Origin: Clostridia bacterium
Lineage (GTDB): Bacteria > Bacillota > Clostridia > CAKSNL01 > HGM11501
Assembly (NCBI GenBank): GCA_045588365.1
Contig: JAZNEB010000024.1
Coordinates: forward strand, 48,963-112,962
Direction: 5' to 3'
DNA length: 64,000 nucleotides
Shown here: in pieces, positions 3,413 through 56,242 of the stretch
How the letters are laid out: every line of letters starts with the position of its first letter
Numbering within the stretch: the stretch's first letter is position 1
Position numbers and translations under genes: made by a program
Notes under the pieces: model-generated
Databases searched by the model: none
What the model was told of the DNA's origin: nothing
Seen by the model: the letters and a program-made list of their open reading frames with translations, nothing else

Positions 3413-4162
3413 ATGATGCTTGAACTCAAAAATCTTTCTTTCGAGGTTTCGGGCGAAAACTCCAAAAAGAAAATTATAGATAACATAAATCTCACCTTGG
3501 ACAGCGGGAAATTTGCCGTTATAACAGGTCCCAACGGCGGCGGTAAATCCACCCTTGCCAAGCTCATTATGGGTATCGAAAAGCCCACGGGCGGTAAAAT
3601 ATTTTTTGACGGAACCGATATAACCGACCTTTCTGTTACCGAGCGTGCCAATTTAGGCATAAGCTTCGCTTTTCAGCAGCCCGTACGTTTCAAGGGCATC
3701 GACGTTTTGGACCTTATGCGTCTTTCTGCAAAAAGACAGCTTTCTGTTTCCGACGCCTGCGAATATCTTTCTGCCGTTGGTCTTTGTGCAAAGGACTACA
3801 TCAACCGTGAAATCAATGCAAGTCTTTCGGGCGGCGAGCTTAAAAGAATTGAAATTGCCTCTGTCTTAGCCCGTGGCACACGCCTTTCTCTTTTTGATGA
3901 GCCTGAGGCAGGTATTGACCTCTGGAGCTTCAAAAACTTAATCGGCGTTTTTGAAAGAATGAGAAACAACATTAAAGACGGTACAATTTTAGTTATTCCC
4001 CATCAGGAGAGAATTCTTAATATTGCCGATGAAATCATCATTGTTGCCGACGGAAAGGTTGAAAAGCGTGGCAACTCAAGTGATGTTTTAACCGATATAT
4101 TAAAAACCGCAGATAAGGGCTTCTGCGAAAGATTAGAGAACGGAGGAAATGAAAATGCTTGA
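3413..4162 (+). CDS. sufC: Fe-S cluster assembly ATPase SufC
   Basis: 249 aa; Walker A GPNGGGKST, ABC signature LSGGE, Walker B LFDEPEAGID; SufC-type soluble ABC ATPase followed by SufB/D homolog. Confidence 0.8.
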   Translation: MMLELKNLSFEVSGENSKKKIIDNINLTLDSGKFAVITGPNGGGKSTLAKLIMGIEKPTGGKIFFDGTDITDLSVTERANLGISFAFQQPVRFKGIDVLDLMRLSAKRQLSVSDACEYLSAVGLCAKDYINREINASLSGGELKRIEIASVLARGTRLSLFDEPEAGIDLWSFKNLIGVFERMRNNIKDGTILVIPHQERILNIADEIIIVADGKVEKRGNSSDVLTDILKTADKGFCERLENGGNENA

Positions 4163-5075
4163 CGCTATAAAGAAAAATCTTCTCCGTGAAGTGGCAGATT
4201 TGCACGACATTCCCGAGGGCGCTTACAATATAAGGTCCAACGGCTCCTCGGAATCAAGAAACACCACCGCAAATATCGATATTGTAAATAAAACCGATGT
4301 CAGCGGTATCGACATTTATATAAAACCGGGCACTAAAAAGGAAAGCGTGCATATCCCCGTAATTTTAAGTGAAAGCGGAATTAAAGAAACCGTCTATAAC
4401 GACTTTCATATAGGCGAAGATGCGGATGTTGTAATTATCGCAGGCTGCGGAATTCACAACTGCGGAAATCAGGACTCCTCCCACGACGGAATTCACCGCT
4501 TTTTCCTCTCTAAAAACGCCCATGTAAAATACGTTGAAAAGCACTACGGCGAGGGAGACGGTAACGGAAAACGCATATTCAATCCCACCACCGAGGTTAC
4601 CATGGAGGAAGGCTCTTCCCTTGAGATGGAAATGGTGCAGATTAAGGGCGTTGACTCCACAATAAGAAAGTCCACCGTTAAAATGGCATCAGGCTCCCGC
4701 CTTTTGGTAAGAGAGCGTTTAATGACTCACGGAGAGCAGACAGCCATAAGCGACTATGTGGTTGAATTAAACGGAGAGGGTGCTTCTGCCGATGTGGTTT
4801 CCCGTTCCGTGGCAAAGGACAACTCCTACCAGAAGTTTGACTCTGAAATTATCGGAAACGGTCCTTGCACAGGTCATACTGAGTGCGACGCCATTATTAT
4901 GGATAACGCCAGGGTTGTGGCTGTTCCGTCTCTTACTGCAAACAACATTGACGCTTCATTGATTCACGAGGCGGCAATCGGCAAAATTGCAGGAGAACAG
5001 CTTATAAAGCTTATGACCTTAGGTCTCACCGAAGCCGAAGCCGAAGAACAGATTGTAAACGGATTTTTGAAATAA
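4155..5075 (+). CDS. Fe-S cluster assembly protein, SufB/SufD family (short SufBD form)
   Basis: ORF 4149..5075; preferred ATG 4155 (GGAGG 8 nt upstream); SufBD-like beta-helix C-terminal region; overlaps sufC stop. Confidence 0.7.
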   Translation: MLDAIKKNLLREVADLHDIPEGAYNIRSNGSSESRNTTANIDIVNKTDVSGIDIYIKPGTKKESVHIPVILSESGIKETVYNDFHIGEDADVVIIAGCGIHNCGNQDSSHDGIHRFFLSKNAHVKYVEKHYGEGDGNGKRIFNPTTEVTMEEGSSLEMEMVQIKGVDSTIRKSTVKMASGSRLLVRERLMTHGEQTAISDYVVELNGEGASADVVSRSVAKDNSYQKFDSEIIGNGPCTGHTECDAIIMDNARVVAVPSLTANNIDASLIHEAAIGKIAGEQLIKLMTLGLTEAEAEEQIVNGFLK

Positions 5076-5077
5076 AA

Positions 5078-5107
5078 AATAAAAGGTGGCATATGCCACC
5101 TTTTTAT
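5078..5107. terminator. Bidirectional terminator (ggtggcatatgccacc + T5) between convergent sufB/D and GH13 genes
   Basis: perfect 7-bp stem, A-run before and T-run after. Confidence 0.7.
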
Positions 5108-6402
5108 ATTTCTGCCGCTGCAAAGCCAAGAGGCGAGATTTTTATCTCGTCTTTTTCTGTTTTTGTTCCTCTTTCAATTATCATCTTTTTTATTCCGTCT
5201 GTCTTTATTGTTTTTTCTTCTTTCCCGAAGTTTATGGAAACTAAAATCCTTTTCTCTCCTTTAATTCTCTCAAAGGCAAGTAATTCCCCTTTATTTTCCT
5301 CTCTTAAAATAAGCTCTCCGTCATATAAAAGAGGATAGTTCATTCTCATTTTATTAAGTTCTTTCATTAAGGCAAGACGGCTCTGTCCCTCCACACTCAT
5401 GGCGTTGGACCAGTCTATTCCTATGTTCTTACCTGAGAATCTGTTAGAGAACATATTCTGTGTTCCCCTATCCAAAATTTCATTTCCGTTCCATATAAAG
5501 GGAACTCCGTCAACGGTGTATATAAGAAAATAGCATAAGTCTGTTATTTCGTGAGGATAAATCAAATCCATACGTCTTTCCTTGTGGTCGCTTGCCAGAT
5601 CGTGGCTTTCAAAAAGGTTAAGATGCTTATAACCAACTGAGGTAGTGAATTCCAGTGTCTTTTTAAAGGCCTCTGCCTTATCCTCCGAGTCCATAAAGGC
5701 GTGCCAGCCCATTCCTCCAAAAGCAGTACATCTGTAAGAAAGGTCGAAAACCCCGCTATTTACAAATTCGGGAGCTATTCCCTCATCAATCATAACAAGA
5801 TTTTCATTTATCTTCCTGCATCTTTTAATGCCCTCTTCCCAGAAATCCAGAGGTATGGCATCTCCCACATCGCACCTGAAGCCGTCAACCTTGTATTCTT
5901 TTAAGAAAAGCTCCATATTGGAGTAAAGATATTCCCTGACTTCATTATTTTCATAGTTTATTCTTGCGAAAGGCCAGTTGGCACCTACTAATGGCTTTCC
6001 GTCCTCATCCTGCTTCACCCAATCGGGATGCTCCTTTAAGAAAACCGCATTGACTCCGCAGTGAAGATATACAAGGTCGAACATTACCTTAAGTCCTTCC
6101 CTGTGTGCCTCGCATACAAAATCCAAAAGGTCTGAATTATCACCGTATTCCTCATCCACATTGAAATAATCCGCCATTTTATAGGGGTTTTTGGGGTTGT
6201 CTGCACCCGATGCAATTTGCCTGGGACTCCAGGTTGCTCTGTTTAAGTCAGCATCTGCCATCCATACGGGGCAAAGATAAATCCAGTTTACTCCAAGCTC
6301 CTTTATGTGATGGAGCATCTTTTTTGCAGCGTTAAGTGTTCCGTCAGGAGTTAATGCTCTTAGGGATATCTGATAAAGTATCCTATTTTCCACAAAAATC
6401 AC
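5104..6402 (-). CDS. Glycoside hydrolase family 13 (alpha-amylase family) enzyme, cytoplasmic
   Basis: 432 aa; GH13 conserved regions (DLVYLHCG, GFRCDVGD, EGI..., FESHD); no signal peptide. Confidence 0.8.
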   Translation of the reverse strand: MIFVENRILYQISLRALTPDGTLNAAKKMLHHIKELGVNWIYLCPVWMADADLNRATWSPRQIASGADNPKNPYKMADYFNVDEEYGDNSDLLDFVCEAHREGLKVMFDLVYLHCGVNAVFLKEHPDWVKQDEDGKPLVGANWPFARINYENNEVREYLYSNMELFLKEYKVDGFRCDVGDAIPLDFWEEGIKRCRKINENLVMIDEGIAPEFVNSGVFDLSYRCTAFGGMGWHAFMDSEDKAEAFKKTLEFTTSVGYKHLNLFESHDLASDHKERRMDLIYPHEITDLCYFLIYTVDGVPFIWNGNEILDRGTQNMFSNRFSGKNIGIDWSNAMSVEGQSRLALMKELNKMRMNYPLLYDGELILREENKGELLAFERIKGEKRILVSINFGKEEKTIKTDGIKKMIIERGTKTEKDEIKISPLGFAAAEI

Positions 6403-6524
6403 CTCGAATTCATATTAACCCAAAAAAATCACTTTTTCAAGGCTTATTATCGCAACAAGGTTTGATTTTCGCAACTTGATTTTATGTATATTTCGTGTTA
6501 TTATGTCTAAAAGAGGTGATTTTT

Positions 6525-47583: not shown

Positions 47584-50500
47584 ATGCAGTCAGTAAAAAA
47601 ACTACTTTGTCTGGGACTGGTTTTTTCCATGCTTTTAACATCTTTCTGCTTTGTTTCGGCAGATGATACCGTTCCCGCAGAAGATACTGCAGTAAATGAT
47701 GCTACATCTTCCACAGAAATTACCGAAGCGGAGGCTCTCCCCACGGAATTTTCTGATATAGACTATGATTCGGTTATGGGAAAAGCCGTTGATTCGTTAA
47801 CAAACAAGGGAATAATCTCAGGCTATCAGGACGGCACCTTCAAGTCCGACCAGACCTTGACCCGTGCCGAGTTCGCAAAAATTATCGTATGCTTCAAGGA
47901 CGCCTCTTTATCTTCCTCGGAGCCTTCAGGCTTTCCTGATGTTGATGATGTGGGCGGAAGCGCTCACTGGGCACAGTCCTACATAAAAATAGCCAAGGAC
48001 ATGGGTATTATTTCAGGCTTCCCGGACGGTTCCTTCAGCCCTGATGCCCCCGTTACATATGAGCAGGCAACAAAAATGATTTTGTGCTCCTTAGGCTATA
48101 CAAATCTGGCTTATCCCCAGGGCTACATTCAGACAGCAGGTCAGAAAAGACTTTTTGTAAATTCTACCCATAAGGGTGCCACAAGCGACCCCATCACCAG
48201 AGGAACAACCGCTATTTTAGTAAATAACGCCTTTACCGTTCCTCAGAACAACAACATCTCAACAGAGACTCCCGGAACTACCGGCGGTGGCGGCGGTGGT
48301 TCCTTCGGCGACTCTTCTGCCGGCGGCGGTGGAGGTGGAGGCGGAGGCGGCGGAAACATCAAGCTTCCCGACGACCTTATCGAAAACCCCGTTGTAAAAA
48401 CAATGTACGGTGTTGTATGGGGCACTTTCTCCACAATGCTCGACACCACAAGAAGCTCCCTTTACGAAAATCAGATTTCTCTTCTTTGCGAAATCAAGGA
48501 CAAGGACACCAATGCAGTTTCCTACGAAAAGAAAACCTATTTCTTCCCCGAAAGCATGATTGGAAAATACGACAAGTATCTGGGTAAATACGTTAAAATA
48601 ACCCTATCCAGAGACGATGAGGGCGAAGAATATGTTTCTAAAATAGATTCCAACTTCCCCAAGAAGAATTATTCTGTTGACATTAAATTGGAGGATTTTA
48701 TACGCTTCTATGATGAAAATGCGGAAGATGATGATCCCTCCAATGACGAAACACAGAATTATATCCTTTCCTACTACAATTCCAAGGATAAAAAGGATAC
48801 TCTTAAATTCACCAACCCCGATGAGCTTTACGTTATTTATAACGGCAAGTCTATAAATACCGAAGAGGCTGAAGAATATTTATTCAATCCCGATTTCGTA
48901 GGGAACACCGCTATAGGCTCCTTTAAGTTCTTATCCTACGACGGAGATAAGAAAATAGACGTAATACTGGTTGATTCTTATAAGACCGCAGTGGTAAGCT
49001 CTAAAAACAAAAATACGGGCATTATAACCTTCCTTGACGGAAGCAAGCTTGATCTCACAAAAAATGATGCGGAATCCGACAGAGAAAGTGTCATTCTTAC
49101 CGACTCTACCACAGGTAAAAACATCACAATTTCAGACATTACCAAGTATGACGTAGTTGACTATAAGGAATCACTGGACGGTCTTTTATTATCTGCCTAT
49201 GTAACTCCCGTGAAGTCTGCCGCTTCAGGTTCGGTTTCCAAAATCAAGTTTGCATCCGAGGAGGTTTCTCCCGATGTTACAAGACCCATAATTGATGATG
49301 ACAGCTTTATTGAAATCAAAAATTCCACAACAAAGAAATCTTACAAATTCAACCCCTATTTCAAGGAAAGCTTCAATGCAAATCTGGCAGAGGATAAATA
49401 TATCCCCATGGTTGACGATACATTAAAGCTCTACCTTGATAAAGACGGAAAAATAGCTCACATGGAATATACGCTCACTACCGCAAATTCCAAATACGGT
49501 TATATAACCGATATGGCATTCAAGGTAGCTGAAAGAGACGATGAATATATCACAAATCCTGACGATGTAACTGAAGAAGATATCCCTGTTCTTAAAATGT
49601 ATCAGATATCTTCAAAGTCCTATACAAAAACTCCTGTTCCCGTTGCATCAAAGGTTATAGTTGACGGAAATATATATCGTAACAATCCCGTTGCGGTTTA
49701 CGAAAGACTTGTCCTGGCAGCTACAGTTGCAAACAGAGGTAAGCTTGATGCTAAGAACCAGAATATGACCTTTGCTTCCTTTGTCCGTTACGAAGTTACG
49801 GGCAGTGAAATAACCGTAATTGATACAATCTTGGATAAGGAAGGACACCTTTCCACAGAAACCGACGATCGCTACAATCTTTTGGTAAGAAGCGAAAAGT
49901 ACGTTTACGACGAGAGAGATTCTGCTCCCGGTAAGCTTTATGATTACGGAGGACAGCACATCTTCTGCACCTCTCCCTCCGCAGGCTTCCACACAGAAGG
50001 AACCTCCAAGCGTTTCAGAGTTAATTCCTCTACAAATATACTCTTTGTTCCCGGCAACAGATTGAGCGGAGCAGAATATTCGGTAGCTAAATATTCCTCT
50101 TCCAATTTTATTGCCTATATGAAATATTATGTAGAGGCATATAACCTTGATGCAAGTAACTATGCGGAATTTGTTCTTCAGTATATGACAGCAGGAAACG
50201 AGCAGATAACAGCTTATTCACAGACATCAACTCTCGGTGTTATAACTGAAATTTTAGACCCCGATATGGATGAAGTAGATGAATTTACTGTTAAGTACAG
50301 AACAAATTCAAGCACTTCTGTTTTAAGCATACTGATAAAAGACGATTATCCCGCTTACGCTAAGAGAGATAATCTTAAAGCGGGCGATGTAATCCTCTTC
50401 TCCAAATCAAGAGATAAGACATCAATTTACGATTACTACCACTCACTTGATGTAAATAATCTTCCCGTAAAGAGAATAGATGATACTGATCTTTTCTACT

Positions 50501-51498
50501 GTAAGAGCAATATAGATGACAGAAGAATTAAAGGCTTTGCAACATATCCCACCGACACAACGCAGGATTATACCGATGATGCAAGGTACAGAACAATTTA
50601 CGGAACTGCAGTTGAGTATGTTTCTTCAGACTCCACTCTTATAGTAAATCCTGCTCTTTCTACAGACTATCTTGCCCCCGATCACAATTTCGACGAAAGC
50701 TTCCTTGTTTCAAGCTCCACAAGACTCCTTGTTTATGACGAAGATGCAGAAACAATTACAGCCTATACCTCCTCTACCGCTACTACCTTAAAGGAATTCC
50801 TGTCAGGAGACGGAGGCGATGAGCAGGGTCTTTTAACAGCGGCTGACAACGGCGATTCTTTCGAGGGTTCGGACCATGTATTTGTTTACACCTCACTTAA
50901 TAATACTGCAAAGATAATCTATGTAATCCGTTCTTCTTCACAGAGAAATCCCGCTCCCTACAGCGACGATGTTGACGTATTGAACGGAGTGAGACAATCA
51001 GCAAAGAATTCTCTGGATTCTCATGTAAATCTCTCTTTATATGAAGAAATAGCAACCGCCATAAACGAAGTTATAGCTCAGGGTAAAGACGCAATTGATG
51101 AAGCAGAATCTTCAGAGGCTATCGAAGAGGCAACTATACTTGCCAAGGGCAAGATGGACGCTATCACCAATCTTTACTCCTATGTGGCTCCTGACGAATA
51201 CGAGGAGATTGCCGCAGATTTAAGGACTTTGGTTTCAGAGGGTATAGAAGCCATTAAAAATGCAGAAACAGTTTTCGATGCGGAAACTATCTGCTCTGAC
51301 TATAAAAACTCAATAGATGAGGCAATTGCAGCTTTAGAAGAACCTTCCGAAGAACTTGAAGAAGAGCCTTCCCAAGAACCTGAAGAAGAACCTTCCCAAG
51401 AACCTGAAGAAGAGCCTTCCCAAGAACCTGACGAAGAACTCGAGCCCGAACCCGAGACTGAGCCCGAGACTGAGCCTTCCGAGGAATTAACTGAATAA
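47584..51498 (+). CDS. Large S-layer-homology (SLH) domain surface protein with poly-Gly linker and acidic C-terminal repeats
   Basis: 1304 aa; signal peptide; SLH repeats near N-terminus (…ISGYQDGTFKSDQTLTRAEFAKII…, …ISGFPDGSFSPDAPVTYEQATKMIL…); G-run ~48280-48360; EEPSQEPE x3 24-bp tandem repeats ~51355-51430. Confidence 0.8.
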   Translation: MQSVKKLLCLGLVFSMLLTSFCFVSADDTVPAEDTAVNDATSSTEITEAEALPTEFSDIDYDSVMGKAVDSLTNKGIISGYQDGTFKSDQTLTRAEFAKIIVCFKDASLSSSEPSGFPDVDDVGGSAHWAQSYIKIAKDMGIISGFPDGSFSPDAPVTYEQATKMILCSLGYTNLAYPQGYIQTAGQKRLFVNSTHKGATSDPITRGTTAILVNNAFTVPQNNNISTETPGTTGGGGGGSFGDSSAGGGGGGGGGGGNIKLPDDLIENPVVKTMYGVVWGTFSTMLDTTRSSLYENQISLLCEIKDKDTNAVSYEKKTYFFPESMIGKYDKYLGKYVKITLSRDDEGEEYVSKIDSNFPKKNYSVDIKLEDFIRFYDENAEDDDPSNDETQNYILSYYNSKDKKDTLKFTNPDELYVIYNGKSINTEEAEEYLFNPDFVGNTAIGSFKFLSYDGDKKIDVILVDSYKTAVVSSKNKNTGIITFLDGSKLDLTKNDAESDRESVILTDSTTGKNITISDITKYDVVDYKESLDGLLLSAYVTPVKSAASGSVSKIKFASEEVSPDVTRPIIDDDSFIEIKNSTTKKSYKFNPYFKESFNANLAEDKYIPMVDDTLKLYLDKDGKIAHMEYTLTTANSKYGYITDMAFKVAERDDEYITNPDDVTEEDIPVLKMYQISSKSYTKTPVPVASKVIVDGNIYRNNPVAVYERLVLAATVANRGKLDAKNQNMTFASFVRYEVTGSEITVIDTILDKEGHLSTETDDRYNLLVRSEKYVYDERDSAPGKLYDYGGQHIFCTSPSAGFHTEGTSKRFRVNSSTNILFVPGNRLSGAEYSVAKYSSSNFIAYMKYYVEAYNLDASNYAEFVLQYMTAGNEQITAYSQTSTLGVITEILDPDMDEVDEFTVKYRTNSSTSVLSILIKDDYPAYAKRDNLKAGDVILFSKSRDKTSIYDYYHSLDVNNLPVKRIDDTDLFYCKSNIDDRRIKGFATYPTDTTQDYTDDARYRTIYGTAVEYVSSDSTLIVNPALSTDYLAPDHNFDESFLVSSSTRLLVYDEDAETITAYTSSTATTLKEFLSGDGGDEQGLLTAADNGDSFEGSDHVFVYTSLNNTAKIIYVIRSSSQRNPAPYSDDVDVLNGVRQSAKNSLDSHVNLSLYEEIATAINEVIAQGKDAIDEAESSEAIEEATILAKGKMDAITNLYSYVAPDEYEEIAADLRTLVSEGIEAIKNAETVFDAETICSDYKNSIDEAIAALEEPSEELEEEPSQEPEEEPSQEPEEEPSQEPDEELEPEPETEPETEPSEELTE

Positions 51499-51542: not shown

Positions 51543-51803
51543 CTACTTTTCAACGTGAATTCTTATGTCCAGTTTATTATCCTTTTTATCTTCCTCCAAT
51601 GCCTTGCCTCCTTTACCAAAGGAAAGCTCTGTAATCCATCTTAATATATCCGTTCTTATTTTAAGCTGCACCTCTTCATCAAAGGCTATGCGCTCCAGTT
51701 CCTTTAATGACTTTCTGGACAGAGCAGTAATCTCTTTTACATCGGCCTTTGTTTTTTTTAATGTCTTTTTTATAAGCTCATTCTTCTCTTTCATATTCAT
51801 CAT
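51543..51803 (-). CDS. Hypothetical small charged protein (86 aa)
   Basis: ORF with Lys/Glu-rich helical sequence; no recognisable motif. Confidence 0.35.
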   Translation of the reverse strand: MMNMKEKNELIKKTLKKTKADVKEITALSRKSLKELERIAFDEEVQLKIRTDILRWITELSFGKGGKALEEDKKDNKLDIRIHVEK

Positions 51804-52046
51804 CCTCCCTGTTGCAAGACTTATAAATCAAGCCCCCGAAAAGAACCCTGTTTTCCAGGTTAGCTTTTCCGGATATTTCCCCAAACTTCAGCACTTCACT
51901 TATTTCAGGATGCTCCAATTCTAAAATAAAACCACTCCTTTTTTAACTTAAAACGTCATTACATGGACAGAAAAATGCACCAACAGCCGTTGATGCTCCT
52001 GTATATTATATCACATTTTTACCGACTTGTCAAGTTATATATCAAA

Positions 52047-52085
52047 TAAAAATATTGCGGGGTAAATCCCCGCAATATTTTACAC
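52047..52085. terminator. Terminator (atattgcgggg-taaat-ccccgcaatat) at end of darA-containing operon
   Basis: 11-bp stem; T-run on minus-strand side. Confidence 0.65.
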
Positions 52086-52397
52086 TTTCCCGAATTCTGA
52101 AACATCCATTACAAAATAGGTTGCCCCGCCTACCAATATTTCCTTTGTTACACTTCCGTTGTGAAGTCCTCCGCCAATCTCCGGCTTTTTCTGTGTCCTC
52201 TGGGAACAGAATTTTGCAAGGAGCTCCTTTATTTTGGCAACCTTGTCATCCTCGGTTCCTATTAAAAGAGTTTTATTTCCCGTGTTCAGAAATCCCCCTG
52301 TTGTAGATAATGTTGTTACAAAAAAACCTTCATTTGTAAGAGCCGATGTGATTATGGCTCCATCGTCATTGTTTACTACTGCCAATACCAATTTCAT
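52080..52397 (-). CDS. darA: PII-like c-di-AMP receptor DarA (YaaQ/DUF970)
   Basis: 105 aa; aligns along whole length with B. subtilis DarA (MKL..A.V..D...TTGGFL..GN.T..G..DD...GGAT.FVM). Confidence 0.75.
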   Translation of the reverse strand: MKLVLAVVNNDDGAIITSALTNEGFFVTTLSTTGGFLNTGNKTLLIGTEDDKVAKIKELLAKFCSQRTQKKPEIGGGLHNGSVTKEILVGGATYFVMDVSEFGKV

Positions 52398-52415
52398 TTA
52401 ATAATTACCTCCTAA

Positions 52416-52922
52416 TTATAAATCAGTTGCTATAAGCTTGAAGCTTCCCCTGTCAAGCTTTTCAAAATCAACAATTTCATATCTGTTATCATTTGAGTCC
52501 TTGATTAAAACTCTGTTATCCTGAATGACCTTTATGTCAGTTTGTCGGTTTCTTATTTCAAATTCTCTTATGCCACGGTCGGTTAAAACCTCCCATTTAA
52601 GAACCCCGAATTTTTCGCTTCTTCCCAGAATCTTACTGATTTTAGGAATCATATAGTATTCTTCCAGTGCTTTTCGCAAGGCATTTCCCGATTCGGGCAT
52701 CAACGTATTTATATCCCTTACCACTGCAATCTCGCTTCCCTTTTCATCCAGGAGCGATATATATCTGTCAGGTCCCGTTATTGGGAAAAGACGTCTCGCC
52801 TCCACGTTTTTAAATCCGGTTCCGTCAAAAAATTCAATATCAAGTAAAAACGCTTCCGATGGGCTTATCTTAACCTCGTCGGCATTTATAAAAACTCTTG
52901 CCATAGCTACCCCTCCAATCAA
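52416..52922 (-). CDS. Hypothetical protein (DUF1854-like), translationally coupled to ABC exporter
   Basis: 168 aa; start overlaps ABC gene stop (ATGA); family assignment from memory only. Confidence 0.4.
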   Translation of the reverse strand: MIGGVAMARVFINADEVKISPSEAFLLDIEFFDGTGFKNVEARRLFPITGPDRYISLLDEKGSEIAVVRDINTLMPESGNALRKALEEYYMIPKISKILGRSEKFGVLKWEVLTDRGIREFEIRNRQTDIKVIQDNRVLIKDSNDNRYEIVDFEKLDRGSFKLIATDL

Positions 52923-55186
52923 AGCTTGATTTCATCTTCGGTAAGCTTTGAGCCGATAGACTGTATCCTGATTAAATTATAATACTTTCCTTTTTTAGCC
53001 ATAAGCTCCTCGTGGCTTCCGTTTTCTATAATTCTTCCGTTATCCACAACTAAAATTCTGTTAGCCTTTCTTAATGTAGAAAGTCTGTGAGCTATCATAA
53101 GTGTGGTTCTTCCGCTTATAAGATTGTCTATGGCATTCTGAATCATGGATTCAGTTTCCGAGTCAACCGCCGCAGTAGCTTCGTCGAAAATCAAAATAGC
53201 GGGATTTTTAAGTATTGCACGGGCTATTGATATTCTCTGCTTTTCGCCGCCAGAAAGACCAACGCCTCTTTCTCCCAGCATAGAATCATAGCCGTCAGGC
53301 TGCTTTATTATAAAGCCGTGGGCATTTGCTACATCCGCAGCATTCATTACCGCTTCAGGAGAAGCGGCAGGATCGCCATAGGCTATATTCTGATAGATAG
53401 TATCCGAAAACATCATTGGCTCCTGCTGAACATATCCCAGGTGGTCTCGGTAGCTTTGCAAATCCAGTTCCCTTATATCAACGCCGTCAAGCAGAATCTG
53501 ACCTTCATAATTGTCGTAATAGCGTAAAAGAAGATTTATGAGTGTGGTTTTTCCGCTTCCCGTTGTACCCACTATTCCCACTATATCTCCCGCATTTATG
53601 GTGAAGTTAACATCTGTGAGAACTTTTTTTGTTTTATCAAAGGCAAAGTTTACATTCTTGAATTCAATTTTTCCTTTTACTGTATCAGGCTTTATTCCGT
53701 CTTCTCTGTTTGCCTCAGGCTCTGCATCTATAACATCAAGCAATCTTTCAACGGATGCCAGTGCCGACTGGTAGGAATCTCCCAAAGATGAAAAGTACCT
53801 CACGGGAGCATAGAACATTGAAGTATAGGAAATAAAAGATACCAGTGTTCCTGCAGTAAGCCCTCCTGCTCCGTCTGCTCCGATTATCCAGAAGCCGCCG
53901 ATTGCCCAGATGGAAAGACCGCCGATTGTAATTAAAAATCCCATTATTTCAGGAAAAGCCGATGCAATTTTTGCCGTTTTATACTCGGTTTTAAGCCACT
54001 CGTTTGTGTAGAAATCAAATTTGTTTACTGCCGATTTTTCCCCTGAAAATGCCTTTACCACTCTTATGCAGGGGATACTGTCTGTAAGGATAGATGTAAC
54101 CCTCGCCCACTTACGCCATATTCTTCTGTAATAAGGCGCTATAACTTTGGCGAACAATCTTCCTATAAAAACAACAAAGGGCACGGGAATTAAGGCAAGC
54201 AAGGTAAGTCGCCAGTTCATCAAAAGCATAATAACCGCAATACCAATAAGCAAAAGTGCCTGATTTAATGCTGACTGGCTTATATTAAGCATAAATGACT
54301 GTATTGTTCCCGTATCACTGCTTATTCGGTTTATAACCTGGCCCGTGGGAGTTTTATCGTAAAATTTCATTGGCAGGAACTGTGCCTTTTTATACACATC
54401 ATTTCTTATTCTCGTTACAATTCTTGCCCCTGCTTTTCTTAAAGTAAAGTTTTTGAATATCATTACACCGTAATGATATATGTAGCAAAGAAGCATGAAA
54501 ATAACCAGCTTGATGAGCCCTATTCCATCCCCCTTTGGCAAAATGTCGTCAACGATAATCTTTGTGGCTATAGGGGGCAGAAGCTCAATTATTATAAGGG
54601 AAATTGAAATTAAAACACAAGCTATAAGCCTTCCGATTTCAGGCTTTATGTAGGGAATAAATTTACCGAATGCCTTGCTCTTTGAGGAACATTTTATGCA
54701 GGTTGCTCCAGGATGCAAAAGAGTTCTTCCGCACTTGGGACACACTCTCATAAGCTTTTCGTAGGTTCCCTCAACTCTTTCTATCTCCTCAGAAAAGTTT
54801 CCGCCACCGGATAAAGCATTTATAAAGGAAGAAGCCATATCCATAAGTGCCGCCACTGAGAAGGTATATCTCATAATGACTTTTTTATCTCCGTCCTTAG
54901 TAAAAAGCCTCATATATGCGTTTCCGTAAAGACGCTTAACCATGGTTTTTTCCACGTCGGAGATGAAATATTCCATAACATCTTCTTTATCTAAATCCAA
55001 AATAAAAAACCTTTTCTCGCTGACCACAAGGGCGCATCTTCCGTATTTAGCTTCCGGAGTGAGATCGCCTATTACAGCAAAAAGAAAAGGTTCGTCCTCT
55101 CTGTAAAACGGTTTTAAAAGCCCTTCCATATTTTCGGGGGCAGCCTTATTTATGAGCATAGAATCCATAAACGTCATATAAAACAC
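52919..55186 (-). CDS. ABC exporter (fused permease + ATPase) with ~180-aa N-terminal cytoplasmic extension containing a zinc ribbon
   Basis: 755 aa; N-terminal CPKCGRTL...CIKC; 6-TM ABC_membrane; Walker A GTTGSGKTT, LSGGEKQR, Walker B ILIFDEATAA. Confidence 0.85.
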   Translation of the reverse strand: MFYMTFMDSMLINKAAPENMEGLLKPFYREDEPFLFAVIGDLTPEAKYGRCALVVSEKRFFILDLDKEDVMEYFISDVEKTMVKRLYGNAYMRLFTKDGDKKVIMRYTFSVAALMDMASSFINALSGGGNFSEEIERVEGTYEKLMRVCPKCGRTLLHPGATCIKCSSKSKAFGKFIPYIKPEIGRLIACVLISISLIIIELLPPIATKIIVDDILPKGDGIGLIKLVIFMLLCYIYHYGVMIFKNFTLRKAGARIVTRIRNDVYKKAQFLPMKFYDKTPTGQVINRISSDTGTIQSFMLNISQSALNQALLLIGIAVIMLLMNWRLTLLALIPVPFVVFIGRLFAKVIAPYYRRIWRKWARVTSILTDSIPCIRVVKAFSGEKSAVNKFDFYTNEWLKTEYKTAKIASAFPEIMGFLITIGGLSIWAIGGFWIIGADGAGGLTAGTLVSFISYTSMFYAPVRYFSSLGDSYQSALASVERLLDVIDAEPEANREDGIKPDTVKGKIEFKNVNFAFDKTKKVLTDVNFTINAGDIVGIVGTTGSGKTTLINLLLRYYDNYEGQILLDGVDIRELDLQSYRDHLGYVQQEPMMFSDTIYQNIAYGDPAASPEAVMNAADVANAHGFIIKQPDGYDSMLGERGVGLSGGEKQRISIARAILKNPAILIFDEATAAVDSETESMIQNAIDNLISGRTTLMIAHRLSTLRKANRILVVDNGRIIENGSHEELMAKKGKYYNLIRIQSIGSKLTEDEIKL

Positions 55187-55201
55187 CTCGTTTTCTAATT
55201 G

Positions 55202-55218
55202 TGAATGACAAGCATTCA
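55202..55218. promoter_or_regulatory. Perfect palindrome TGAATG-ACAAG-CATTCA in leader of ABC operon (possible operator)
   Basis: between promoter (TTGACA-16-TATAAT, 55248-55275 minus) and RBS. Confidence 0.35.
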
Positions 55219-55308
55219 GTTAGTTACCAAGTATTTATTTTTACTTGATTATAACAGAGTTTTTTCACTTGTCAAGGTGTTTTTGCAATTTTTGTAACCT
55301 TTTTTGTC

Positions 55309-55346
55309 AAAAAAAATAAGGAAGCTAAGGCTTCCTTATTTTTAAT
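55309..55346. terminator. Terminator (aaggaagc-taag-gcttcctt + T-run) after zinc-ribbon membrane protein gene
   Basis: A8 before, atttttaat after. Confidence 0.65.
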
Positions 55347-56242
55347 CAATATACTTTTTCCATACCTACGGTAATTTCATATCTCATATTCATTTCCGTT
55401 ACGGTTTTGTCGTAGGTATATTCGTAAGTGCCCCCGGAAATTATACCCTCTGAGTCCATGGAAACAGGAATTCTGACGGTTAAAGGTTCACTTCCTCCGG
55501 GTGCGATAAACTTCTGCTCCGTACCCTTAAACTGCAATGCCAGATTTCCGTTTTCGTACCATGCCAAAAACGCTTCGGGAGTGCTTCCCGGCTGAAGCGC
55601 CGCACCGTCAACGGTCATAACATCGGGTGTCAGGACTGCCGCCATGTGGTTGTTTCCTTTGTCGGCAAAATATACCGTTCCCAAAGACTCGATTATCTCT
55701 GTAACAGTTTCATAGTCTCCCGATAAATCAGAATCCCAGTTTTTCTTTAATCTGTATGTATAATTCCATTCGCCCTCTATGGTTTCGGAATTTAAGAATA
55801 CGGGAGTTTCGGGTACATTGGTCAAAGGAGCTTCTTCTATCACCTGCTCCTGCCCAGCACCTATATATCCAAGCTTATTTAAAACCAAAACTGTGTTTTC
55901 TGCAAGGAATAAAACCAAAAGAATAATTGCCATGCTTGCCCACACTTTACCTCTTTTAAGCTTTTTCTTTATTTTCTTGTCCTCTTTTAAGCTTTTCTCC
56001 TTTATTCTTACAGCCAGAGGAGAAGTTCTCATTCTGTCCTCTTCTGTTTCCTTTAAGGTAACAGGTGCTTTCTTTTCTTCCTGGGAGTTTTCTTCAACTT
56101 TTTCCTCTTTTACCTCATCAGATGCTTCCAAAGCTGCATTTGAAACGGCTAAAAGCTCCGCTTCTGTAAGAATGTCCTCTCCGCACTTCTTGCAGTAGGT
56201 TGCACCCTCTTTATTTTCAGTTCCGCATTTTTCACAGAGCAT
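55346..56242 (-). CDS. Zinc-ribbon domain membrane protein (N-terminal CxxC-x10-CxxC, one TM, extracytoplasmic domain)
   Basis: 298 aa; MLCEKCGTENKEGATYCKKCG; Lys/Glu-rich linker; TM ASMAIILLVLFLA. Confidence 0.6.
   Translation of the reverse strand: MLCEKCGTENKEGATYCKKCGEDILTEAELLAVSNAALEASDEVKEEKVEENSQEEKKAPVTLKETEEDRMRTSPLAVRIKEKSLKEDKKIKKKLKRGKVWASMAIILLVLFLAENTVLVLNKLGYIGAGQEQVIEEAPLTNVPETPVFLNSETIEGEWNYTYRLKKNWDSDLSGDYETVTEIIESLGTVYFADKGNNHMAAVLTPDVMTVDGAALQPGSTPEAFLAWYENGNLALQFKGTEQKFIAPGGSEPLTVRIPVSMDSEGIISGGTYEYTYDKTVTEMNMRYEITVGMEKVY

Follow-up and report, generated by a model that had tools for sequence, protein, structure and literature searches.

What does a gene for a c-di-AMP receptor-like protein do at the end of an exporter operon? 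The question is raised by a 64,000-nt stretch of DNA from a Clostridia bacterium (GenBank assembly GCA_045588365.1, contig JAZNEB010000024.1, positions 48,963 to 112,962; the whole stretch is called the window below). There, a small PII-like protein of the DarA/PstA type, a family of cyclic di-AMP (c-di-AMP) receptors, is encoded directly after an ATP-binding cassette (ABC) exporter and a DUF1854 protein. [quoted passage not shown] We found no report of a linkage of this kind in the literature on DUF1854, PF06153, YaaQ and DarA together with ABC transporters. The component families and the coupling of PII proteins to transporters were already known; what appears to be new is the joining of a DarA-type sensor gene to a DUF1854/PH-zinc-ribbon ABC exporter.

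Results

The PII-like gene closes a three-gene operon

The open reading frame (ORF) listing gives four consecutive ORFs on the minus strand, at 56242..55346, 55186..52919, 52922..52416 and 52397..52080. Both the ORFs and the Pfam matches agreed with the gene set and the placement described in an earlier note on this DNA, and the gene boundaries were revised. The exporter gene is listed from a GTG at 55186 (755 amino acids); its likely start is the ATG at 55177, which is preceded by GAGGTG and gives a protein of 752 amino acids (52919..55177, minus strand). The DUF1854 gene is listed from a TTG at 52922 (168 amino acids), and its likely start is the ATG at 52904, which is preceded by GGAGGGG, lies 14 nt past the exporter stop codon and yields 162 amino acids (52416..52904, minus strand). 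The 752- and 162-residue forms are those of the NCBI record for the contig, and they agree in length with essentially all homologues. The gene for the 105-residue PII-like protein (52080..52397, minus strand) follows after a gap of 18 nt, which contains an AGGAGG ribosome-binding site (RBS). These boundaries replace the 168-residue length and the spacings of 4 and 19 nt given earlier. The ATGA overlap reported between the exporter and DUF1854 genes also disappeared, as the junction reads cTTTGATTG and only the TTG start would overlap the stop codon (TTGA).

A sigma-70-type promoter matching the consensus at 12 of 12 positions lies in the exporter leader (55275..55248, minus strand; TTGACA, a 16-nt spacer with the TG of an extended -10 element, and TATAAT). 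When the leaders from five relatives were aligned, the -35 and -10 hexamers proved to be kept in loci L007, L009, L010 and L011, and the hexamers and the RBS were conserved more widely than the arms of an inverted repeat, which is described below. The leader RNA had a folding z-score of -2.3. Rfam detected no riboswitch, including the c-di-AMP riboswitch, in the leader or the window, where the above-threshold matches were three tRNAs only. At the other end, an intrinsic terminator with a 14-bp stem and a T-run closes the operon (52049..52081, minus strand; -22.3 kcal/mol, z = -5.6). A single promoter and a single terminator bracket the exporter, DUF1854 and PII-like genes, which form a three-gene operon.

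The PII-like protein belongs to the DarA/PstA family and keeps the ligand contacts

The 105-residue protein matched the Pfam family PF06153 (CdAMP_rec) with 89.4 bits (cut-off 27, E = 2e-25), its residues 1-104 being aligned with profile positions 1-108 of 109. It could also be aligned end to end with the PstA/DarA structures 4rww, 4rle and 4d3g, all of them trimers (E ~1e-16, ~40% identity). The protein has the same length class, short T-loop and long B-loop as DarA (B. subtilis YaaQ) and PstA (S. aureus, L. monocytogenes), but the B-loop motif of these proteins, Y-x-x-[FY]-P-[VI]-E-V, is missing from it. The score for the NCBIfam DarA equivalog NF058593 was 92.5 bits, below the cut-off of 140. 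The canonical darA context, holB / yaaT (PSP1), is not present either; the gene sits after the ABC and DUF1854 genes, and neither holB nor PSP1 nor another PF06153 gene occurs in the 64-kb window.

In the PstA of L. monocytogenes (LmPstA), c-di-AMP is contacted by T28, G34-G-F-L37, N41, G94-G-A96, T97 and F99 (PMC4475381). The window protein carries all equivalents (T28, GGFL34-37, N41, GGA90-92, T93 and F95), and the reported contact residues were kept in 23-24 of the 24 exporter-linked sequences described in the next section. The identification of the gene as darA in the earlier note therefore holds in part: failure to align with DarA or PII-like profiles, named there as a possible outcome, did not occur, and the contacts are kept, but the equivalog score, the separate clade and the remodelled B-loop do not fit DarA proper. 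Judged from its sequence, the protein is a member of a separate subfamily rather than a canonical DarA at an odd location.

One subclade of these proteins (L004-L006, L038, L040; P0084, P0090, P0095, P0101) carries RGA or KGA (V[RK]GAT) in place of the GGA kink of the B-loop. This kink was described as "universally conserved" in PstA, where GGA makes its contact via the main-chain amide (PMC4475381). The replacement may alter the c-di-AMP phosphate contacts or the movement of the loop.

The gene order is conserved in one clade

Homologues at 47-92% identity were found in Clostridia metagenome-assembled genomes (MAGs) as well as in metagenomes from gut, rumen and digesters. The ABC, DUF1854 and PII-like genes followed one another in this order on one strand in 31 related loci and the window, with 24 distinct PII-like sequences. 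Among the linked loci, the ABC identity went down to ~51%, and the flanking genes differed by lineage. Three homologues (69%, 62% and 54% identity) showed the ABC (~750 amino acids), DUF1854 (162 amino acids) and PF06153 genes in order between unrelated flanks. Five of the six genome loci obtained with a single-protein query had the same gene order, and the sixth (41% identity) lacked it. The spacing between the DUF1854 and PII-like genes was 13-61 nt in most lineages, and 138 and 190 nt in two.

We also scanned metagenomes with a family alignment and classified the best 80 of 562 loci, ranked toward the query. By tblastn, the exporter and DUF1854 genes lay directly upstream in 20 of these 80 loci; 16 hold both genes, and the contigs of L023, L031, L033 and L037 break off within the ABC or the DUF1854 gene. 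Within the best 80, these 20 are all the loci with ~50% identity or more, except L032. The other 60 included 29 with holB and/or PSP1 (yaaT), many of them arranged as OKR_DC-darA-holB-PSP1; the remaining unlinked loci were YchF-, PurD- or HD-linked, had other contexts, or had contigs whose shortness prevented classification. A neighbour-joining tree built from 72 distinct sequences placed the 24 linked ones in a single clade with zero unlinked members. The linkage of the PII-like gene to the exporter and DUF1854 is strongly conserved and is not accidental. The earlier note had suggested surveying the neighbourhoods of darA homologues for exporter linkage, and the linkage turned up in the 31 related loci, in one clade. 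Of the association proposed there, the exporter, DUF1854 and PII-like genes remain, while the zinc-ribbon membrane gene and the leader repeat drop out.

Long matches that might have been Rosetta-stone fusions of DUF1854 or the ABC protein to PF06153 (P0073, P0203, P0277, P0171) were rejected, since their extensions were frameshift-like or unrelated. In two loci at 42-43% identity (L085, 36..2740; L094, 4486..7684), a PF06153 gene with a canonical-type B-loop lies between genes for a major facilitator superfamily (MFS) transporter and an amidohydrolase. The PF06153 stop codon and the amidohydrolase start have a 4-nt overlap in L085, and a gap of 4 nt separates the two genes in L094. These loci show a DarA-type protein in a second transporter/enzyme-linked context, independent of the first.

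The loops of the linked clade have diverged

Residues were compared between the 24 linked and 48 unlinked sequences. The B-loop motif P-x-E-V-x-V-GG was present in 44/48 unlinked sequences and in 0/24 linked ones. At position 38, in the T-loop just past GGFL, Arg or Lys occupied 37/48 unlinked sequences, as against Met in 18/24 linked sequences and Asn in the window protein. G75 was invariant in the linked clade only. [quoted passage not shown] Residue conservation thus points to a linked clade with a conserved ligand pocket and a diverged putative output surface, which is the pattern predicted by recruitment to a new dedicated partner.

The exporter carries a PH-like/zinc-ribbon domain

The exporter matched PF00664 (ABC_membrane, 149.7 bits) and PF00005 (ABC_tran, 112 bits). 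It consists of a six-helix ABC_membrane region and a nucleotide-binding domain (NBD), as in half-transporters of the homodimer type. The Walker A (GTTGSGKTT), signature (LSGGEKQR) and Walker B (ILIFDEATAAVD) motifs are intact; with both domains and all three motifs, the protein is an ABC exporter of the type IV fold. Its core region also scored well against HlyB and bacteriocin-exporter models. The score for NCBIfam NF052233 was 543 bits (cut-off 880), with residues 15-744 aligned to model positions 14-745 of 766. This alignment covers the N-terminal extension, so that the architecture of extra domain, transmembrane domain and NBD is held in common.

The N-terminal extension (residues 1 to ~180; 54638..55177, minus strand) was predicted to contain a PH-like beta-sandwich that ends in a helix (~residues 20-142), followed by a zinc ribbon with C146, C149, C160 and C163. 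These CPKC...CIKC cysteines were invariant in an alignment of 18 homologues of the domain, which took in exporters without a PII-like neighbour; R82, Y84, N86 and R103 were invariant as well. AlphaFold2, run on an alignment of three sequences, returned a confident core of seven strands and then a long helix, and the zinc ribbon was poorly modelled (predicted local distance difference test score, pLDDT, <50). The invariant cysteines and the PH-like fold prediction bear out the extra domain of ~180 residues that had been proposed for this exporter. A word-index search with the domain matched 2 proteins, and sequence searches against the PDB with the domain and with the DUF1854 protein gave no meaningful match. 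The idea that the two are homologous duplicates was dropped (hhalign probability 1%).

Bacteriocin and type I secretion exporters with C39 peptidase or C39-like domains likewise have an extra cytoplasmic domain before the first transmembrane helix of a half-transporter. Those domains are papain-like, whereas that of the window exporter is PH-like with a zinc ribbon, and the neighbourhood of the exporter has neither a secretion substrate nor a membrane fusion protein nor an outer-membrane partner.

The exporter and DUF1854 form a known pair

The DUF1854 protein matched PF08909 with 137.8 bits (cut-off 26.8). Against NCBIfam NF052234 it scored 86 bits (cut-off 150), and the window pair falls short of both cyanophycin-associated equivalog cut-offs (NF052233, NF052234). 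NCBIfam names the members of the proteobacterial pair "cyanophycin metabolism-associated" ABC transporter and DUF1854 family protein. The cyanophycin-associated pair shares with the window a full-length exporter match including the N-terminal domain, and DUF1854 directly downstream; the proteobacterial systems are without a PII-like third gene. In two beta-proteobacteria, Price et al. found cofitness among DUF1854, the ABC transporter next to it and two cphA-like genes; DUF1854 usually shares an operon with its ABC exporter (bioRxiv 10.1101/072470). Polymer export by DUF1854 exporters is a fitness-based hypothesis only in that work, which also mentions, via the Pfam curators, DUF1854-ABC fusions (10.1101/072470); none occurred among the sequences examined here. 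No cyanophycin export process is known according to a 2023 paper (PMC9974463). The 64-kb window contains no cphA-sized gene, since its ORFs of at least 800 amino acids encode a P-type ATPase, a surface-layer homology (SLH) protein and isoleucyl-tRNA synthetase (assigned from translation), the ABC exporter itself falling below this size at 752-755, and no cphA-type domains were present in the annotated flanks of L001-L006 and L013-L016.

A profile search for DUF1854 returned 2,075 cluster representatives at E <= 1e-3. DUF1854 lies downstream of the ABC exporter in the window as well as in each of the 34 pair-bearing loci, directly so except in L021 and L038. In L021, an insertion of 359 nt separates the ABC gene (end ~5127) from the DUF1854 gene (start ~5487), and in L038 one of 768 nt separates them (4411 and 5180); an ad hoc gene finder placed an extra small ORF in each. 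The exporter and DUF1854 are an already recognised, uncharacterised module, which mostly occurs without any PII-like gene. DUF1854 is presumed to be a cytoplasmic accessory subunit of the exporter.

The leader repeat and the neighbouring genes lie outside the conserved unit

The leader contains the inverted repeat TGAATG-N5-CATTCA (TGAATGACAAGCATTCA, 55202..55218), whose 6-nt arms flank a 5-nt centre that is not palindromic. The earlier note had presented it as a perfect palindrome. As an exact pattern it is unique, and we considered it as an operator. This was rejected: the window contains 46 repeats of the 6+5+6 geometry, which is the chance level, and the arms were retained only in L007 (95%-identical) and were gone in L009-L011 and L001. 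The repeat is probably not functional.

Upstream of the operon lies the gene for a zinc-ribbon membrane protein of 298 amino acids (55346..56242, minus strand), with an N-terminal zinc ribbon (Zn_Ribbon_1, E = 4e-6), one predicted transmembrane helix and a C-terminal domain of no recognised fold. This domain of ~170 residues is presumably extracytoplasmic and had no family match. The gene is followed by a terminator hairpin with a T-run (~55312..55343, minus strand; -16.6 kcal/mol, z = -3.7). It was found upstream only in L001, L007, L009 (displaced by ~1.8 kb), L010 and L011; it is absent from L002-L006, and tblastn gave no match in the remaining linked loci. In the closest relatives, the protein is 45-84% identical and is always encoded upstream of the exporter promoter. 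The gene and its own terminator exist as first noticed, but its association with the operon is confined to these closest relatives.

Directly past the operon terminator there is a second promoter with 12/12 consensus positions (52033..52005, minus strand). Behind it come a leader that contains a terminator-like hairpin plus T-run (51996..51977) and a Lys/Glu-rich ORF of 86 amino acids (51803..51543, minus strand) with no Pfam or NCBIfam match. This ORF is kept beside the operon in L007 (89%), and in L011 (49%) it lies downstream by a further ~5.6 kb or so; a small gene under attenuator control could be encoded here. On the plus strand, an SLH-domain surface protein of 1,304 amino acids (47584..51498) has, near residue 230, a run of ~25 glycines and, at its C-terminus, an acidic repeat of the EPSQEPEE type. 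The SLH/Lgt/peptidase-M16 neighbourhood flanks the operon in L001 too.

Discussion

With these results in hand, we propose that the PII-like protein serves the exporter as a dedicated regulatory subunit that senses c-di-AMP, a reading to which we assign a probability of roughly 0.55. More tentatively, the machine would have a specialised DarA/PstA paralogue as the c-di-AMP-sensing third subunit beside the PH/zinc-ribbon-ABC exporter and DUF1854. Gene order and family analogy suggest c-di-AMP-responsive control of export, because members of the PII superfamily control transporters by direct binding. The PII-like trimer would bind c-di-AMP and, depending on the occupancy, its B-loops would dock on DUF1854, on the N-terminal domain of the exporter or on the NBDs. 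Docking would turn ATP-driven export on or off, and would thereby tie it to the osmotic, potassium or cell-envelope state reported by c-di-AMP. If the cphA-linked proteobacterial homologues are a guide, an amino-acid-derived polymer or peptide may be what is exported. The ancestral exporter would already have included DUF1854 and the N-terminal domain, which would probably serve substrate handling or coupling, with the PII-like protein as a later regulatory addition.

GlnK-AmtB and SbtB-SbtA are operon-encoded pairs. They and the PII-NrtABCD/UrtE systems combine a small trimeric PII-fold sensor with a membrane transporter, as would be the case here. The cyanobacterial PII protein binds and regulates the ABC transporters NrtABCD and UrtABCDE (UrtE) (PMC6603209, PMC10945777), and SbtB binds c-di-AMP (PMC8654305). 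The targets of GlnK, SbtB and cyanobacterial PII are channels or importers of nitrogen or carbon nutrients, whereas the window encodes a type-IV-fold exporter with DUF1854. Furthermore, the window sensor is of the DarA type and would use its B-loop, not the T-loop, and its pairing with the exporter is a putative one. Coupling of c-di-AMP to membrane transport is also seen in the CBS domains of OpuCA and in KtrA/KtrC, KhtT and CpaA (PMC10636490). There, one of the transporter's own domains binds the nucleotide, whereas here the signal would pass through a separate "third-messenger" protein, and no annotation ties the window exporter to K+ or osmolyte transport.

Several observations weigh against the proposal of a dedicated subunit. 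A trimeric PII protein and a dimeric ABC exporter have no obvious symmetry match. The gaps of 138-190 nt before the PII-like gene in two lineages could house a separate promoter, and neither PII-DUF1854 nor PII-ABC fusions were present among the sequences examined. A PII-like gene is missing from the vicinity of more distant Firmicute DUF1854/ABC pairs (41-49% DUF1854 identity). Of these, L015 and L016 fall outside the linked clade in the ABC tree. In L013/L014, the ABC protein nests inside the linked clade (L013 is sister to L019). On these two JGI metagenome contigs, the ABC gene (3638..6001) and the DUF1854 gene (6001..6486) are followed by an opposite-strand flavin reductase/rubredoxin gene. 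Since L013 lies inside the linked clade of the ABC tree, the PII-like gene was apparently lost secondarily, or relocated, in L013/L014.

The alternative that survives best, and which we still judge unlikely, is that the gene is a relocated general DarA: the lineage's only orthologue would have moved from the holB locus and would act on global targets, being co-expressed with the exporter without controlling it. PII-type proteins usually have multiple targets, and GlnR was named as a PstA target in the 2026 preprint (PMC13484208). The occurrence of the exporter pair without the gene, the seeming loss in L013, and a window with neither a second PF06153 gene nor a holB locus are compatible with such an orthologue replacement. 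However, a functionless linkage rarely outlasts divergence to ~50% identity over many flanking contexts, and the B-loop has been remodelled specifically in the linked clade, as a new partner predicts.

A change of ligand is considerably less probable. In that case, the linked subfamily would sense another nucleotide or a metabolite related to the substrate, instead of or besides c-di-AMP. The score under the DarA equivalog cut-off, the change of Arg/Lys to Met at position 38 beside GGFL, and RGA/KGA for GGA in one subclade would fit this idea, but the full set of LmPstA contact residues in the window protein and their retention in nearly all linked sequences speak for the original ligand, and the GGA contact runs through a main-chain amide (PMC4475381).

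It is more improbable still that the exporter secretes c-di-AMP itself, with the PII-like protein as loader or sensor of an overflow valve. Efflux pumps secrete c-di-AMP in Listeria, and the hard-wiring of a c-di-AMP-family protein to an exporter without an assigned substrate is circumstantial support. The same pair, however, is widespread in bacteria lacking PF06153, including the cphA-linked Proteobacteria, which makes c-di-AMP an unlikely substrate, and we know of no PII-type protein that hands over its ligand. Finally, a meaningless adjacency produced by chance or assembly has hardly any probability left: most of the data do come from MAGs and metagenome contigs, but the same order with short gaps and RBSs was found in independent NCBI, JGI, ENA and Logan assemblies, on contigs of up to 592 kb and 1.9 Mb, and the survey effectively refutes it.

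The carriers of the operon are uncultured gut and rumen Clostridia, and what we say of them past gene linkage and sequence conservation we infer. DarA/PstA proteins are among the most conserved c-di-AMP receptors, and the linked subfamily offers a concrete, testable candidate partner for them, with the B-loop marked as the place for specificity determinants. The linkage also gives a regulatory clue for the DUF1854-associated exporters, a family of ~2,000 sequence clusters without a known substrate. If the more tentative reading, with a specialised paralogue as the third subunit, is true, this would be the first operon-encoded ("hard-wired") effector target for DarA/PstA receptors and the first ABC exporter gated by a second messenger via a PII-type adaptor, and it would provide a handle on what the widespread DUF1854 exporters transport.

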